From positions 1-64,000 of the IMG/VR virus record IMGVR_UViG_3300017605_000342: a stretch of 64,000 nt of DNA. One strand, 5' to 3'. Under the pieces are notes generated by a model. The model searched no databases and was not told the origin of the DNA. It saw only the letters and a program-made list of their open reading frames with translations. Positions 7,794 through 59,293 of this stretch are shown here, one piece after another. The position numbers and the translations under genes were made by a program. The DNA is from a virus. Each line of letters begins with the position of its first letter. Within the stretch, counting starts at the first letter, position 1.

Positions 7794-8423
7794 ATGATAC
7801 ACGTTAGAGAAGTTTCACAGGTTAAATTCCCTCTGAGGGAGAACATTAACATCAACATGATGCCGTTTATTATGGGAGATGCGCGGTCAATTCCTTGGGA
7901 ATATCGGCATTACTATCCAATGATTGAGGCATGTCGTGTACACGAGTCACAGCTAGGTAAAGTAGGATACCTGTCTATTCAAGAAAACCATGTTGAACAC
8001 AATACTAGCCAGAGGCGTGCGGGAATTCACACTGAGGGTTTTATCAACGCTGGTTGGGGTGGTGGTGGTTGGGGTGGTGGTAATGAAAAACCAAAAGTAG
8101 GTGGTTTATATCAAGGATCTACTGTTGCAAATTCCTGCCGCGTGTGGGAAACTCGTGTAGATTGTCCAGGTACGTTAGGAAACTGCGAACACCTACGATC
8201 TACGTTAGGCAGTGGGTTTTTGATGAAGCCAGATACTCTGTATTGGATGCATGATCGAGTGCCGCATGAATCTTTACCACTGAAGTTCCGCACCTACAGA
8301 CAATGGTTTCGCTTGGTAACTTCTGCTGTTGACAATTGGTATGCTGCAAATTCAACACCTAACAGACTAGGCATTGTTGCACCGTGCAACATCATTCACA
8401 AAAGTAAATTTGCGGGCGCGTAG
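7794..8423 (+). CDS. putative 2OG-Fe(II) dioxygenase-like (DSBH) protein
   Basis: RRAGIHTEG (HxE), distal PHES, RQWFRL; GWGGG repeats; stop codon lies inside the downstream tRNA. Confidence 0.5.
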   Translation: MIHVREVSQVKFPLRENININMMPFIMGDARSIPWEYRHYYPMIEACRVHESQLGKVGYLSIQENHVEHNTSQRRAGIHTEGFINAGWGGGGWGGGNEKPKVGGLYQGSTVANSCRVWETRVDCPGTLGNCEHLRSTLGSGFLMKPDTLYWMHDRVPHESLPLKFRTYRQWFRLVTSAVDNWYAANSTPNRLGIVAPCNIIHKSKFAGA

Positions 8424-8490
8424 CTCAATAGCGTAGAGCACTCCGCTCATAACGGAGCAGTTGAAGGTTCGAGTCCTTCCGCGCCCACCA
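8414..8490 (+). tRNA. tRNA with CAT anticodon (Ile2 or elongator Met)
   Basis: GGGCGCG/CGCGCCC acceptor (paired 1:72, so not initiator), CTCCG-CTCATAA-CGGAG, CCA. Confidence 0.9.
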
Positions 8491-10868: not shown

Positions 10869-11139
10869 TGCGTGGGTTGTTTGGCGTATGGATTGGGAAG
10901 AATCTGAACGTGGGTGGGGCGTGCGGCCTGATGGGTACTCGCTCCACCTTACCCCAGAAGCTTGGACAAAATTCTACGCTGAATTTGTACGCAAAGAAAG
11001 AGAACGTAATCCTTCCGGTATAGTACCAGACGAATACTCACGCCCCTGTTCTGATAACCCCCGTCTTGTAGAAGTAATTAAAAAAGTTTACGATGAAGTG
11101 CATGTAGCTTCCACAAAACATGGTAAGTGGTATCTTTAA
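10861..11139 (+). CDS. conserved-type phage hypothetical protein
   Basis: WEESERGWGVRPDGYSLH...PDEYSRP. Confidence 0.6.
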   Translation: MGNAWVVWRMDWEESERGWGVRPDGYSLHLTPEAWTKFYAEFVRKERERNPSGIVPDEYSRPCSDNPRLVEVIKKVYDEVHVASTKHGKWYL

Positions 11140-11146
11140 TTTCTCC

Positions 11147-11240
11147 GGGTGTCGTTCCCCACGGGCGGCTGTAACCCGCCTGCCTTATCAAATAAGTGGG
11201 GGCGCGTTGGCGTGAGGTTCAAGTCCTTCGGCACCCACCA
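11147..11240 (+). tRNA. atypical tRNA-Tyr(GTA)-like RNA lacking a local D-arm
   Basis: GGGTGTCG/CGGCACCC acceptor, GGCGG-CTGTAAC-CCGCC anticodon arm, GAGG-TTCAAGT-CCTT T-arm, A73-CCA; only 8 nt between acceptor and anticodon arms. Confidence 0.8.
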
Positions 11241-11300: not shown

Positions 11301-11759
11301 ATGATCCTTCAAAAAGCAATTCCCATGAATGCAAGGGGCATTTTTTATGCCACTAAAGACCACCTGTTGGAACAGAACGAAGCAGCGTTCTTGGAGCACA
11401 TGAATAACACGTGTGCCTATCATATAGAAGAAGGCGGTAAACTTCTGGCTTGCGCCATTGGGTTTAGAATACCTAACGCTCTATACAAAGAAGAGTTCGA
11501 AGAAAGAAATGTAATTGATCTAGTAGATGCAGAAATTGAACTACAGTTCTTACGACCTACTGACATGGATGTTGAAGAAGGGAACATCTTCTTGGAGGCG
11601 TTACAGTCTTTGCACGATAGAGTAGACGTTGAAAACTGGCCAAAGGCTTTTGCCATATTAGAAAATTGGTGGTTTCCCAACGAACACTCTATACCGGATA
11701 TGTGGTCTTTACCGTTAGAATTTTCTCATCTATTGAAAGATAGGGCGGTGGATGCATGA
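11301..11759 (+). CDS. hypothetical acidic protein
   Basis: GAGG RBS before ATG 11301; upstream in-frame extension overlaps the tRNA-like RNA. Confidence 0.6.
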   Translation: MILQKAIPMNARGIFYATKDHLLEQNEAAFLEHMNNTCAYHIEEGGKLLACAIGFRIPNALYKEEFEERNVIDLVDAEIELQFLRPTDMDVEEGNIFLEALQSLHDRVDVENWPKAFAILENWWFPNEHSIPDMWSLPLEFSHLLKDRAVDA

Positions 11760-12529
11760 TCCCAGAAGAAATACTACAATCAGACGAGGGTATATCTAAG
11801 TGGTCAATTGTTGTAGCTAAGCGTGGTAGTCAAGCCGATGGTACAGCCACCGCCGCATCAGACACTGACTTGATTTCTATCTGTGTACCGCCAAAGAAAT
11901 ACTACTTAGGTCTATCACAGTATGGCAGTGATGGTTCTAAAGAAGTAAAACAATTTGAGGGATGGGATATAGTTGTGTATGAGTTACACAAGCTTATGCG
12001 GTTGCTTAAAGGTGCTAACCCAAACGTAATGCCGCTGCTATTTCTCGAAGACTTCATGTATGTCCGTAACAGCGAGGCAATGCGGGCGCTGGTAGATCAC
12101 CGCGACCTGTTCATCTCAAAGCAATGCTACGCACCGTTTGTTGGTATGGGCAGAGGCCAACTAACACGCATGACAGTATGGGAAAGCACTCGCAAGCTGG
12201 GCGAGAAGCGTAAGAAACTTGTGGAAACCTACGGCTATGATACCCACAATGCAGCCAGCTTAATCAAAACTGTGCGTCAAGGCATCGAGTTGTTAAACAC
12301 TGGTAGAATGTTTCTTGATAGACGTAGCATAGATGCACAAGAAATTACAGATATCAAACGTGGCAAGTGGAGCATGGAAAAGATTAAAACTGAAGCTGAC
12401 AGCTTGTTTGAACGGGCAAAAGAAGCACTAGAAAAATCACCACTACCAGAGAACGTTGACTTTGATAAGATCAATGACCTGACAGTGAAGCTTGTTCAGG
12501 TTGCTTGGAAAGGACGCGACGAACGGTAA
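11756..12529 (+). CDS. Pol-beta superfamily nucleotidyltransferase (RlaP/YcgL-like)
   Basis: RGSQA.G....SDTDL, DIVVYEL, NPN, YGYDT, L.TG, IKRGK motifs. Confidence 0.85.
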   Translation: MIPEEILQSDEGISKWSIVVAKRGSQADGTATAASDTDLISICVPPKKYYLGLSQYGSDGSKEVKQFEGWDIVVYELHKLMRLLKGANPNVMPLLFLEDFMYVRNSEAMRALVDHRDLFISKQCYAPFVGMGRGQLTRMTVWESTRKLGEKRKKLVETYGYDTHNAASLIKTVRQGIELLNTGRMFLDRRSIDAQEITDIKRGKWSMEKIKTEADSLFERAKEALEKSPLPENVDFDKINDLTVKLVQVAWKGRDER

Positions 12530-19129: not shown

Positions 19130-19657
19130 ATGAAACTCTCACACGTTAAATCTCGCGTACATGTACCGGATGACTTTGATTATTTACGATCACGTAAAGC
19201 AATACATCCTAGCTGTCCCACTGCTGACAACGACTATTGTGAGTGCACGCTAGATCAAGGTACATTTGGGGAAAGCAAACCAGCACGGTGGTTAGCTGAC
19301 CAATTATCAACCCCAGAACATCTACGCCATATTCGTAGTGTGTCTGCACTGCTGGAAAAATATAATCGTAGGCTTAACATTCTAGAAAACATGTTTCGTA
19401 GAGAACACCTGGCAATTGTATGGGGTGTTGGGTCAGCGTACGAACGCCCTATACAGAAACATTTCCACGAACTTGCGGTGGTGGTGGTGAAAGCCTTAAA
19501 GAAGGAAACATCTACCAAAGTGTTCAGCCACGAGTGGCCTCAAAAAATTAAAGACTGTGTTAATAATCTTGTAACGGCAAAAACAAATAAGCTGTTAAAA
19601 ACTCTGGTAGACTGGAGGCGTCGTGGAAAGATCGACATTTCGGACTGCGGTTTTTGA
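19130..19657 (+). CDS. hypothetical protein
   Basis: 175 aa ORF, ATGA-coupled. Confidence 0.55.
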   Translation: MKLSHVKSRVHVPDDFDYLRSRKAIHPSCPTADNDYCECTLDQGTFGESKPARWLADQLSTPEHLRHIRSVSALLEKYNRRLNILENMFRREHLAIVWGVGSAYERPIQKHFHELAVVVVKALKKETSTKVFSHEWPQKIKDCVNNLVTAKTNKLLKTLVDWRRRGKIDISDCGF

Positions 19658-20621
19658 GCGTGATAATGGGGCATGTGTGGTGTGTGGTCAACCAGCACAA
19701 GACGCACACCACATCCTAGAACGTCGTTTGTGGAACGACGGTGGGTACCACTTAGATAACGGTGCCAGTCTGTGTGGCCCGCATCACCTAGATGCTGAGT
19801 CCACGATTATCTCGGTAGAAGATTTGCGCCTCAAGTGTGGTATTACTCGCAAAGTTATACCGGAACATATGTATGATGACGAGGTATATGACAAGTGGGG
19901 CAACTGCGTACTGCCTAACGGGCAGCGTACAAAGGGAGAATTGTTCAATGACGAGTCTGTTCAAAAGGTGCTGGCTCCCGTATTACATCTGTTCACTGAT
20001 CGTGTTAAGTATCCTCGTACATACCATCTTCCATTTTCACGTAATATTACAGATGATGACCGTGTTATTAGCGATCTTAACATATTTTGTGGGAAACAGG
20101 TTGTTATAACAGAAAAGATGGATGGCGAGAACACCACCATGTACCGTGACGCAATACATGCCCGCTCCATAGACTCTGGAGCACACCCATCACGAACATG
20201 GGTGAAGCAATTTTGGGCACAGATCAAGCACGATATCCCGCCAGGTTGGCGTATCTGTGGTGAGAATGTTTACGCAAAGCATTCCATATATTACGAAGAT
20301 CTTAAGAGTTACTTCTATGGATTTTCTATCTGGGATAGTAACAACCTGTGTTTGGACTGGCATGATACTCTAGTGTGGTTTCAGCTATTTGGTATAGAGC
20401 CTGTACCCACATTATATTTAGGGCTTTATGACCAACAAGTTCTTGATGATCTTACTAATCGAGATTGGAAAACATCAGAGGGCTATGTTGTACGTTTAGA
20501 TAGTGTGTTTTCATATAGGAATTTTAGAGACAGTGTTGCAAAGTATGTGAGAGAGAAGCATGTCCAAACAGTAAAGCACTGGATGCATGGGCAACCAGTA
20601 ATACCAAATAAACTACTCTAG
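19623..20621 (+). CDS. HNH domain fused to Rnl2-family RNA ligase
   Basis: RD..CVVC..DAHH..N..SLC..HH; KYPRTYHLP, TEKMDGEN, GEN, EGYVVR, KYVR. Confidence 0.85.
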   Translation: MERSTFRTAVFERDNGACVVCGQPAQDAHHILERRLWNDGGYHLDNGASLCGPHHLDAESTIISVEDLRLKCGITRKVIPEHMYDDEVYDKWGNCVLPNGQRTKGELFNDESVQKVLAPVLHLFTDRVKYPRTYHLPFSRNITDDDRVISDLNIFCGKQVVITEKMDGENTTMYRDAIHARSIDSGAHPSRTWVKQFWAQIKHDIPPGWRICGENVYAKHSIYYEDLKSYFYGFSIWDSNNLCLDWHDTLVWFQLFGIEPVPTLYLGLYDQQVLDDLTNRDWKTSEGYVVRLDSVFSYRNFRDSVAKYVREKHVQTVKHWMHGQPVIPNKLL

Positions 20622-21853: not shown

Positions 21854-23320
21854 ATGAGCTATTACGGAATTGTCGTCCAACTGGACGGGGTGCGCAAGCA
21901 CCCCGGAGCGGATCGTCTGCAACTTGCTAACTGTTTGGGTAACCAAGTGGTGGTAGGATTGGAGGCACGCGACGGGGATGTTACTGCGTTCTTTCCTGTT
22001 GACGGAAAACTATCAGAAGATTTTTTGAATGCAAACAACCTGTTACCTGTACTTGATGCCCAAGGTAAGCGTATTGGTGGAGGATTCTTTGATGTTAAAG
22101 GTAGAGTTCGCGCTCAAAAATTCAGAGGCGAACGTAGCGAAGGTTTTGCAATCCCGGTTGACGCACTTACGTACACAGGTTATTCAATTGCCAAGCTTAA
22201 GGTCGGCGATCAGATTACGGAACTTAATGGTCACCAAGTTTGCACCAAATACATTAACGAAAAAACTATCAGGGCACAAAAGGAAGCTTCACTTAGAGCA
22301 GCCAAAGTTAAAGTACTAAACTTCCCAGAGCATGTGGACACCGAACAATTCCGGTTTGTAGCGAAGGATATCCCTGCCGGATCATTGGTGTACATCTCTG
22401 CAAAAGAACATGGTACTTCACAGAGATACGCACACACGTTGATGACACGTAATTGGGCACAAGCTCATGTCATTAAGGTAGTGCCGCCACTGAAGTCTTT
22501 GCTGCGTAAGACACCGTTAAGAAAGTATGCTAACGAAGTATGTCGGCGACTTAACAATGTTCTGATCAAGCTAACTTCTAGACATTGTTTTACTATCAAG
22601 CCTAAGTACATACATGCTATTGGTACGCGGCGTACTGTGTTGGATCAGAATTCAAGCACGTCGTTCTATCAGTTAGAACATGGGTCAGAACAGTTTCGTT
22701 ACAATGTTATGCGTGGGGTTGTTTTGCGTAAGGGAGAAATCCTTTACGGTGAAGTTGTGGGCTGGGTATTGCCAGACAAGCCGATTATGTCCCAGTCAAT
22801 TTCAAAAGAAATTAAAAAGTCTTTCGATAAAATCTTCTCACAGCAATACCCTGGTGACCAGATGATTTACAAGTATGGCGTCCCCAACGGTGGTGCTGAA
22901 TTCCACGTGTACCGTATTGCCCACGTTAATGAAGACGGTAACATGGTTGACTTGCCGTGGACCCAAGTCGTACGTCGTTGTAAAGAACTGGGATTGAAGA
23001 CTGTTCAGTTAATGAACTTGAATTACTCCAAAGTGCAAGATGGAGTATTTCCGGTTATAACATACAACTATCAAAACCCATTTATCTACGACGGCAATGT
23101 ACGAGACTTACAGGAATTGGTTAATAGTCTGTTAGAAAAGCCCGCCATCTCAGATCCGTCACACATTGAAGAGGGCGTTGTGCTGCGTGTAGAACAGCCT
23201 GACGGTGAGATCAAATACATCAAGCAAAAGAGCTTTGCCTTCGGGGTCCTAGAAGGTTACGCAAAGCTTGACGAAAATTATGTTGACACTGAAGAAGCAG
23301 CCAGTGCCGAATCTGCTTGA
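21854..23320 (+). CDS. RNA ligase, DRB0094/Rnl5-like, with N-terminal tRNA-binding OB fold
   Basis: KHPGADRLQL, FRGERSEG; motif I KEHGTS, YGE, EGVVLR, KQKS. Confidence 0.8.
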   Translation: MSYYGIVVQLDGVRKHPGADRLQLANCLGNQVVVGLEARDGDVTAFFPVDGKLSEDFLNANNLLPVLDAQGKRIGGGFFDVKGRVRAQKFRGERSEGFAIPVDALTYTGYSIAKLKVGDQITELNGHQVCTKYINEKTIRAQKEASLRAAKVKVLNFPEHVDTEQFRFVAKDIPAGSLVYISAKEHGTSQRYAHTLMTRNWAQAHVIKVVPPLKSLLRKTPLRKYANEVCRRLNNVLIKLTSRHCFTIKPKYIHAIGTRRTVLDQNSSTSFYQLEHGSEQFRYNVMRGVVLRKGEILYGEVVGWVLPDKPIMSQSISKEIKKSFDKIFSQQYPGDQMIYKYGVPNGGAEFHVYRIAHVNEDGNMVDLPWTQVVRRCKELGLKTVQLMNLNYSKVQDGVFPVITYNYQNPFIYDGNVRDLQELVNSLLEKPAISDPSHIEEGVVLRVEQPDGEIKYIKQKSFAFGVLEGYAKLDENYVDTEEAASAESA

Positions 23321-25234: not shown

Positions 25235-25312
25235 AGGGTCGCATGCTCCAAGGCTGGCGAGTTCGCCTCCAAAGCTTACTGTGGATGGGTTCGATTCCCT
25301 CCGGCCCTGCCA
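25235..25312 (+). tRNA. tRNA-Trp(CCA), irregular anticodon stem
   Basis: AGGGTCG/CGGCCCT, loop CTCCAAA, T-loop TTCGATT, G73-CCA. Confidence 0.78.
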
Positions 25313-49234: not shown

Positions 49235-49545
49235 AACTTTGGAGAACACATGGAAGACACAAGAAGAGAAGAGGAAAAAGAACAAGAACGCAGACGTAAA
49301 AAACTTTTAGAGGAAGAAGAGCGCGAACGCAAGAGGCAGCAAGACAACATTAACCAACTCAATGCTGTTATCTCAGCAGTCATTTCTACAATGTGAGAAG
49401 CAAACATGGCACAACAAAAAACAAAAAACGGTATCGATGAAGTGATAGACACAATATCAGATATCTTAGACATTGGCGCTGATGCGGCAGACGACGTAAT
49501 AGATTGCCTAGCAGATGTGCTAGACGACTTCGACTTTGGAGACTA

Positions 49546-50160
49546 ATGAAATCATACCCTTCGATTCCCTCGTGGAAATCAGTCATCGGTGATTGGGCGG
49601 GCCTAGAATGCTTTGCCTTTGAGAAGATCGATGGTAGTAATATCAGGTGTGAATGGTCACGTAAAAGAGGTTGGTACAAATTTGGTAGTAGGACGCGGTT
49701 ATTGTCAGAGTCGGATACGACGCTAGGCAGAGCCATCCCAGTATTCAAACACAAGTATGGGGATGCTATCCATGACATACTTGTTAAAGGATTAAAGAAT
49801 CCAGAGTCTGCGATTGTGTACTGCGAGTTCTTCGGGCCAGGTAGCTTCGCGGGAAACCACCGCATGGTCGATAAACAGCACATGGACTTGGTGCTGTTTG
49901 ACGTTGACATTTACCGTAAAGGGCTACTACCACCTGACCAGTTTGTAGATCATTTTGGCGCTTTAGACATACCAGTGCTTTGTTACAGAGGTCCCCTTAC
50001 CACTGCTTACGTAGAGAATGTTAAGGCGGACTCAGAGGAACTGGAAGAAGGAGTAGTAGTTAAAACTGTATACAAAAAACAAGTTGATATGTGTAAGATC
50101 AAAACAAGATTTTGGCTTCAACGTCTTAAAACAAAGACCGGAGAAGTCGAAGATTGTTGA
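49546..50160 (+). CDS. compact RNA ligase-like nucleotidyltransferase
   Basis: YPSI, EKIDGSN, FGSR, CEFFG, LFDV, EGVVVK, KIK. Confidence 0.75.
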   Translation: MKSYPSIPSWKSVIGDWAGLECFAFEKIDGSNIRCEWSRKRGWYKFGSRTRLLSESDTTLGRAIPVFKHKYGDAIHDILVKGLKNPESAIVYCEFFGPGSFAGNHRMVDKQHMDLVLFDVDIYRKGLLPPDQFVDHFGALDIPVLCYRGPLTTAYVENVKADSEELEEGVVVKTVYKKQVDMCKIKTRFWLQRLKTKTGEVEDC

Positions 50161-50927: not shown

Positions 50928-51012
50928 CGGGGCGTGGCGGAATGTAGACGCAGCGGTCTTAAGAACCGCCGAGTTAGTTCTCGTGAAGGTTCAAATCCTT
51001 CCGCCCCGACCA
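50928..51012 (+). tRNA. tRNA-Leu(TAA)
   Basis: CGGGGCG/CGCCCCG, GCGGT-CTTAAGA-ACCGC, long variable arm, CCA. Confidence 0.9.
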
Positions 51013-53399: not shown

Positions 53400-53819
53400 A
53401 TGCTAGAAAAGAAAAAGCAGCGACAGATAAAAAGTCTAGGGCTAAAGGTACGACAGAGAGTAAAGAGCCTCAACAGCAAAGTTTTACGTGGGGAGCTATG
53501 TTGGAACTTTAACATGGCAGGTGGTTGCCTGATGGCCTCATACATGCTAAACCGAGTTTTGACAAAACACGGTATTCCCTCAAAACTCATTAAAGGCAAC
53601 TACAACGGGATGTACCACTGGTGGGTTGTTGTAGACAACTTTGTTGTAGATATCACAGCAACTCAGTTTGGAATGAAAGATAGAGTTTACATAACACGCG
53701 CATCAAACAAGAAGTATGTCGGCAAAGAACATCAAGCAAAGACATTTGCACAATGGCCCAAAAGATTGTGGCCAACAAAATTTGTTTCTTACTTTAGGGG
53801 TATTAGCATAAAAGAGTAG
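53400..53819 (+). CDS. transglutaminase/papain-like Cys-His-Asp protein (start uncertain, possibly 53514)
   Basis: GGCLMAS, HWWV, VDITATQF; stop codon inside tRNA-Asp. Confidence 0.55.
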   Translation: MLEKKKQRQIKSLGLKVRQRVKSLNSKVLRGELCWNFNMAGGCLMASYMLNRVLTKHGIPSKLIKGNYNGMYHWWVVVDNFVVDITATQFGMKDRVYITRASNKKYVGKEHQAKTFAQWPKRLWPTKFVSYFRGISIKE

Positions 53820-53873
53820 TGCGCTTCCCCGTCACGGAAGAAGGTGCCGGTTCAAGCCCGGTATGCCCCGCCA
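53797..53873 (+). tRNA. tRNA-Asp(GTC) with C33
   Basis: GGGGTAT/ATGCCCC, CTTCC-CCGTCAC-GGAAG, G73-CCA. Confidence 0.85.
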
Positions 53874-58634: not shown

Positions 58635-58925
58635 ATGTTCTCTAACGTACGAAAGCAAGAAATTTATTGCCATGCCTGTGACGGGCACGTACAGTTTGAA
58701 TTAGATTTAGACTTAGATGGTAACTATGAACTTAACTGCCCCAACTGTGGGCACACACATTATAGACTAGTACGCAAAGGACGAATCACAGACCAGCGTT
58801 GGCGATCTTCTAGTATGATGTACACTACCATCACCAGCGCGACGTTTACATGGACGGCCACAGCCACCACCTGTACTGGCACTGGGGCCTTCCACCTGTA
58901 TTATTGCAACTCTTCTACGACATGA
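58635..58925 (+). CDS. zinc-ribbon protein with Thr-rich tail
   Basis: CHAC...CPNCGHTH. Confidence 0.55.
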   Translation: MFSNVRKQEIYCHACDGHVQFELDLDLDGNYELNCPNCGHTHYRLVRKGRITDQRWRSSSMMYTTITSATFTWTATATTCTGTGAFHLYYCNSSTT

Positions 58926-59293
58926 AAATTCTCTTCTTAGACGACGACCATTCTCGGATCAAACTAGCAAAACGACAATGTATAGGCCACGATTTAATCG
59001 TTGCAGAAACCGCTAAACAAGCCATCTATGCTCTCGGTACTGGCGCTGTCTTTGACGTTGTGTCTTTAGACCATGACTTAGGCGGCGAAACTATGGTTAA
59101 ATCCGGTGATGGTACTGGCTATGAAGTAGCTGTGTTCATTAGTCAAATGGATCTCCCGCCACAGCGCGTTATCTTACACACGTTCAATCCAGCCGGTGCC
59201 AGAACCATGTGGTACAAACTGGCACAGGTACCAGAATTAGTACAAGAATTTTTTGGAAGCCCTGCATATTTTAGAATACTAACAACACCATGA
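58922..59293 (+). CDS. cyclic-phosphate-processing receiver (REC-like) domain protein
   Basis: ILFLDDD, SLDHDLG, TGYEV, HTFNP.G. Confidence 0.8.
   Translation: MKILFLDDDHSRIKLAKRQCIGHDLIVAETAKQAIYALGTGAVFDVVSLDHDLGGETMVKSGDGTGYEVAVFISQMDLPPQRVILHTFNPAGARTMWYKLAQVPELVQEFFGSPAYFRILTTP

Follow-up and report, generated by a model that had tools for sequence, protein, structure and literature searches.

A candidate tRNA-Tyr(GUA) with a D arm permuted into its variable loop, encoded by a phage and by a family of phage and Planctomycetota tRNA genes

To our knowledge, the cloverleaf order of strands is regarded as universal among tRNAs that work on bacterial ribosomes, and the known exceptions either lose arms, as in mitochondria, or are mimics. 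The normal order is acceptor, 5' D strand, D loop, 3' D strand, anticodon arm, variable arm and T arm. The canonical class II tRNA-Tyr(GUA) (RF00005; T5 and Felix O1 genes) follows it, and the locus described here shares its G1-C72 pair, A73, GUA anticodon, G26-U44, T loop and CCA, as well as a short variable stem followed by two to three unpaired bases before the T stem. The 8/4 allo-tRNAs and the (8/4) tRNA-Ser/His of bacteria and phages have in common with our element the 8/4 branch, a long D helix whose loop is short and contains GG, a long variable region and an occurrence in phage tRNA clusters; they were described as compatible with bacterial translation, and are cloverleaves with a tRNA-Sec-like D stem-loop and mostly G73 or U73, with no mention of a Tyr species or of a pseudoknot (PMC5389517). 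tRNA-Sec shares a 6-bp D helix, a 4-base loop and the pyrimidine 16-59 contact described for it, but is a cloverleaf with a 13-bp branch and a UCA anticodon, and the D-armless mitochondrial tRNA-Ser likewise has no D hairpin between acceptor and anticodon arms (PMC7609411).

The first natural non-circular permutations to be reported, in which the same three-dimensional core is reached through a different strand order, were those of hammerhead ribozymes; for permuted tRNA genes, maturation is stated to yield the standard form (PMC10085705). Pseudoknotted tRNA mimicry is found in the TYMV and BMV tRNA-like structures and in Y RNA, and the paper covering them adds viral mimics only (PMC11472068). 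We found no prior description of a permuted tRNA fold in the open literature. Two anonymous candidates listed by Fremin and Kyrpides (2023; PMC10690425), DNAVirus_1423 and DNAVirus_2961, in some cases overlap with calls of Tyr and Arg; they could represent the tRNA class described below.

The window, that is, the whole stretch analyzed, covers the opening 64 kb of a virus record 160,874 bases long, in which tRNA genes are dispersed. A Tyr(GUA) element of 94 bases lies on the + strand at 11147-11240, between the end of an upstream ORF at 11139 and the start of the next ORF at 11301, among genes for unknown proteins and an RlaP nucleotidyltransferase. The window also encodes an RNA-repair set (1855-2733, 11756-12529, 19623-20621, 21854-23320, 49504-50160, and 58850-59293) made up of PNKP, RlaP, three RNA ligases, and a cyclic-phosphate receiver domain. 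The parts of the gene, read against its homologues, are the following:

11147..11240, +, whole permuted-D-arm tRNA-Tyr(GUA) gene (putative) with encoded CCA; 86/94 bases identical in the syntenic contig L664, flanks differ
11147..11154, +, acceptor 5' strand, 8 bp, G1-C72, partner 11229-11236; two-sided changes at all 8 pairs, 8/4 geometry
11155..11156, +, UU connector, equivalent to positions 8-9; second base U in 178/193
11157..11162, +, 3' D-strand equivalent CCCCAC, adjoining the anticodon stem, partner 11196-11201; covariation
11163..11181, +, G26, anticodon arm (stem 11164-68/11176-80, GTA 11171-73) and U44; two compensatory pairs relative to L664
11182..11184, +, variable-arm stem 5' strand GCC, partner 11209-11211, crossing the D helix; APC-MI 1.47 and 0.47, 3/3 pairs in 228/231
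11185..11195, +, unpaired A/U-rich linker, 11 nt in this copy, 7-9 nt in most members (family comparison)
11196..11201, +, relocated 5' D-strand equivalent GTGGGG; covariation
11202..11208, +, relocated D-loop equivalent, G11202 fitting the family 16-59 covariation with G11223, usual GG absent (family comparison)
11209..11213, +, variable-arm stem 3' strand GGC, followed by two unpaired bases; covariation
11214..11228, +, T arm, 4-bp stem and 7-base loop (sequence, family geometry)
11229..11240, +, acceptor 3' strand, discriminator A73 (11237) and CCA (sequence, family geometry)

The initial annotation had described an 8-bp acceptor stem (11147-54/11229-36, one G-U pair), a 4-bp T stem (11214-17/11225-28), the GTA anticodon arm, and A73 followed by CCA (11238-40), as well as the complementarity of CCCCAC with GTGGGG and a GCC/GGC helix crossing it, and each of these is present in the sequence where it was placed. 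The spacer between acceptor and anticodon stems, given as eight bases, is in fact nine bases long, G11163 corresponding to position 26, and it has this length in 191 of 193 family members. A TTAT/ATAA hairpin described in the variable region can form but appears incidental, being possible in only 1/231 members (this copy) and broken in L664. The 8/4 branch, rather than 7/5, is indicated by the family, in which an eighth acceptor pair is possible in 193/193 members and an alternative fifth T pair in 28/193.

A profile built from 231 homologues, from which this copy and its nearest relative were excluded, matched 11147-11237 with an E-value of 9.8e-14, the next match in the genome having an E-value of only 0.016; the element is thus beyond chance. 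The element had been noted as the sole Tyr gene of the window, and this holds for the entire 160,874-base genome, whose cloverleaf tRNAs cover 19 amino acids, Tyr being the one missing, and in which no other GUA arm was found in a tRNA frame. ARAGORN at default settings and Rfam, at both the gathering and E-value thresholds, made no call on the element, and the intron-bearing Gly tRNA called there by ARAGORN at a relaxed score is a miscall. A tRNA-Trp(CCA) at 25235-25312 of the window was also missed by default ARAGORN and Rfam, and called at the relaxed score. A blastn search of the element against cultured phages returned no homologue, and no promoter was found immediately upstream, where candidate sites were no more frequent than expected by chance. 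A coding explanation was rejected, since a GTG-started extension of the downstream ORF runs into a stop in L664, where its frame relative to the element also differs, and an opposite-strand ORF belongs to no family. An origin as a homing cassette at this locus found no support, with no HNH nuclease flanking this copy. Outside the window, several elements combining a T arm and an acceptor without an ordinary anticodon arm lie at 141300-144914 of the genome.

A first scan, in which the long-range helix was fixed, gave about 17 members, and a scan fixing the anticodon loop, one G and the T arm, but neither crossing helix, gave at least about 80 distinct members. Scans of GTDB and metagenomes added further ones, leading to 231 distinct parsed Tyr RNAs, a lower bound, from phages and from Planctomycetota tRNA arrays. 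Most search patterns fixed GUA and A73, whereas G1-C72 and the variable stem were left free; the G1-C72 pair, fixed by no pattern, occurs in 226/231 members. A scan for the exact linker of this copy gave no match. None of 12 tested members was matched by Rfam, and ARAGORN calls only 4 of 258 copies of the rewired gene. GTDB members lie mostly inside Planctomycetota tRNA arrays: on a complete Schlesneria chromosome, a 39-gene array contains every amino acid but Tyr, and the element sits between Glu and Leu, filling the gap. The gene is also present, unannotated, in the cultured Pseudomonas phages SCYZ1 and Rembedalsseter and in cultured planctomycetes. Rewired and canonical Tyr genes lie side by side in L229 (5255-5427), L653 (3061-3240), and L282 (1999-2203), loci that are useful for the origin of the permutation.

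Since the parser selected members on their acceptor, anticodon, and T stems, the crossing helices alone are independent tests of the fold. The 6-bp long-range helix is fully paired in 211/231 members and the 3-bp variable stem in 228/231. In a sequence-only MAFFT alignment of 80 sequences, 96.7% of the cells pair, compared to 38-56% in slid-partner controls, with 92-98% for the 6-bp helix, 98-100% for the variable stem, and many two-sided changes. Covariation was scored as APC-MI on 182 sequences against a tree-based null from our own 100-run simulation, used in place of R-scape, with a 95% family-wise cut of 0.375. Five of the six pairs of the long-range helix score above it (0.60, 1.06, 1.00, 1.10, and 0.40), and the sixth is nearly invariant (C-G in 179/182), while the variable stem pairs, at 1.47 and 0.47, covary as strongly as the anticodon stem. 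Homologues with compensatory changes at 11157-62/11196-201 thus exist, and because both crossing helices covary strongly, the alternative, pseudoknotted architecture proposed initially is upheld.

The absence of a D hairpin between acceptor and anticodon arms was correctly noted, but the D arm itself, initially described as missing, is, judged from the sequence comparisons, permuted and not lost, the 5' D strand and the D-loop GG lying inside the variable loop. Past the 3' strand of the long-range helix, a relocated GG or AG is found in 229/231 members, and the relocated D-loop bases covary with T-loop bases 55 and 59. The base preceding the GG covaries with T-loop base 59 (score 0.51; U-U in 147, C-C in 48, and also G-G), and with one inserted base the 16-59 combination becomes U-A (10) or C-G (3). 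In six of the seven members with G55, AG replaces GG, the exchange expected of an 18-55 pair. A D/T elbow (G18-55, G19-56) is therefore backed by covariation in the family; this copy has no GG, but retains the 16-59 contact. The order of the strands would thus be acceptor, UU, 3' D strand, anticodon arm, 5' strand of the variable stem, linker, 5' D strand, D-loop bases, 3' strand of the variable stem and T arm, a non-circular permutation of the cloverleaf backbone. The short path from bases 8-9 to the 3' D strand should be sterically easy because ordinary tRNA contains a U8-A14-A21 triple. The D helix would stack on the anticodon stem, and the ordinary L shape would result.

At the same place on L664, the gene differs by 8 of its 94 bases, corresponding to two compensatory anticodon-stem pairs and four linker bases, with acceptor, D helix, variable stem, and T arm unchanged; the flanks cannot be aligned and the neighbouring proteins are 48-82% identical. 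These two copies are the only ones of the 231 without the relocated GG or AG, and both keep G16-G59. The copy of the cultured phage Rembedalsseter also has no relocated GG, and the D-loop GG is missing in 3 of the 25 cloverleaf tRNAs of this genome (CAU, 8414-8490; Leu UAA, 50928-51012; Asp, 53797-53873 of the window). The loss may reflect a relaxed elbow rather than decay, although it lowers our confidence for this copy.

The element would work as a class II tRNA-Tyr built on an 8/4 framework resembling that of allo-tRNAs, but it belongs to none of the cloverleaf, allo-tRNA, or D-armless classes. Unlike canonical tRNA-Tyr, the rewired RNA has no D hairpin, carries the 5' D strand and D loop in its variable loop, has an 8/4 instead of a 7/5 branch and does not match RF00005; compared with an allo-tRNA, its D helix is long-range and crossing and its discriminator is A73. 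Mitochondrial tRNA-Ser has lost the arm and is flexible in its fold, whereas here the helix and the elbow contacts would be rebuilt in a bacterial translation system. The viral and Y RNA structures are mimics, and in contrast to known permuted tRNA genes, the permutation stays in what is apparently a decoding tRNA. A tmRNA or Y RNA tRNA-like domain was rejected, as no Rfam model matches and the GUA arm is intact, and the unexplained stable RNAs of T5 do not have this fold. Altogether, the element is real and conserved, probably functions as a tRNA-Tyr, and represents a new variant of tRNA architecture.

Repeating the scan with a UCU loop revealed a sister family of Arg tRNAs, in which the whole D loop (A14, purine 15, GG, and A20) is found behind the anticodon arm and which retain, after relocation, U8, A9, A14, and the 15-48 pair (A-U in 53, G-C in 3). 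A20, an ArgRS determinant, is present in 56/56 Arg versions versus 38/228 Tyr versions, Cys versions carry U73, and Ile/Met versions also exist. As far as the sequences tell, identity bases track the anticodon across isotypes. Rewired Arg(UCU) genes, mostly unannotated, occur in Felix O1-like, phi92-like, jumbo E. coli, and Klebsiella phages, for instance at about 3997-4082 in L425 (Felix O1) and at 2155-2236 in L321, and some records carry an HNH protein annotated over or beside them. The Cys form (GCA, U73, 8/4, pseudoknotted) was seen at L442 1054-1142, L462 1199-1287, and L498 995-1083, in planctomycete arrays in which the Tyr form is present too. Tandem rewired tRNAs with UCU, CCU, and CCG anticodons, together with rewired GAU, CAU, and UAU forms, were observed at L354 8180-8420, L345 8849-9013, L100 8422-8501, and L314 8487-8566. 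Finally, L003, L224, L279, and L326 contain GCU tRNAs in which a spacer of only 10-11 bases separates the acceptor arm from the anticodon arm and the variable hairpin is plain; these may be phage tRNA-Ser that truly have no D arm.

We favor, with a probability of roughly three in four, the reading that the element is a tRNA-Tyr(GUA) active in translation, with a cloverleaf backbone permuted non-circularly. This copy carries the Tyr identity set (G1-C72, A73, GUA, and a variable stem), and the 12-bp acceptor/T branch, 5-bp anticodon stem, 7-base loop, and CCA are all present. The RNA would be cut from the phage transcript at its sharp ends, charged by the host TyrRS through these identity elements, and carried by EF-Tu on the 12-bp branch, to read UAC and UAU codons. 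Its role would be that of the other tRNAs of the phage, replenishing the pool when infection destroys host tRNA; a phage tRNA-Tyr has been reported to protect phages against retron-Eco7 (PMC11555353). A canonical Tyr gene is present in 3/56 rewired viral loci versus 27/49 controls, and a canonical Arg(UCU) gene in 1/22 rewired loci versus 40/99 controls (Fisher tests, relatedness ignored); none of the 72 GTDB arrays with a rewired gene has a canonical Tyr gene. Against this reading, a few loci contain both forms and a canonical housekeeping tRNA-Tyr is kept in all five bacterial genomes checked, so that the rewired gene need not be essential.

The initial annotation had offered two functions, a working tRNA-Tyr or a decoy, and the first fits better, given the isotype-specific identity bases and the loci at which the rewired gene stands in for the canonical one. 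A decoy of the same fold, which TyrRS would charge or bind or anticodon nucleases would cleave instead of genuine tRNA, and which would never enter the ribosome, has a precedent in irregular tRNAs, some of which are charged in vitro with no decoding in E. coli (PMC5389517). The RNA-repair set of the phage indicates that it faces RNA-cutting defences, and five viral loci hold both canonical and rewired Tyr genes. However, a decoy would be expected to accompany the canonical gene and not to replace it, and several isotypes retain the 12-bp branch, the 7-base loop of the anticodon arm, the elbow contacts, and the synthetase identity bases, which makes this alternative unlikely. That the family is functional while this copy decays would account for the GG that is absent here, but seems very improbable: all helices are preserved in L664 despite the same loss and the divergence of the neighbouring proteins, two anticodon-stem pairs having changed in a compensatory way, the 16-59 rule is obeyed in this copy (G-G), and the phage has no other Tyr gene. 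We give slightly less credence still to a D-armless tRNA with a nested fold, made of the long helix and a hairpin at 11202-13, or to a switch between two folds, the crossing helices never coexisting. The minimum-energy fold of the single sequence does favor the nested hairpin over the variable stem, by a method that cannot model pseudoknots, and covariation reveals selection on each helix, not their simultaneous formation. Nevertheless, the 11202-13 hairpin is impossible in L664, the variable stem equals the anticodon stem in covariation, and the linkers are conserved at 7-9 and 1-3 bases, lengths that fit a pseudoknot.

Several reasons may be considered for which a translating tRNA-Tyr would keep this topology. 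It may persist as a neutral isomer, which is plausible but short of even odds; an escape from nucleases that read tRNA shape is a weaker, still credible possibility, the nuclease resistance of the permuted fold being a guess; and an evasion of integrases or homing nucleases directed at tRNA genes seems rather improbable. It is possible, if doubtful, that natural non-cloverleaf, non-circularly permuted tRNAs (Tyr, Arg, Ile, and Cys) are widespread and decode on bacterial ribosomes, phages and mobile arrays keeping the fold to escape tRNA-targeting defences while it still serves synthetase, EF-Tu, and ribosome.

If confirmed, a natural tRNA that makes the L-shaped contacts through a different strand order would allow shape to be distinguished from topology. 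What is actually recognized by RNase P, modification enzymes, synthetases, EF-Tu, the ribosome, and tRNA nucleases could then be tested directly. The permuted fold may also serve as a new scaffold for engineered tRNAs. With so few copies called by ARAGORN, the tRNA gene sets of phages and tRNA arrays are undercounted, which affects claims on the tRNAs that phages lack.
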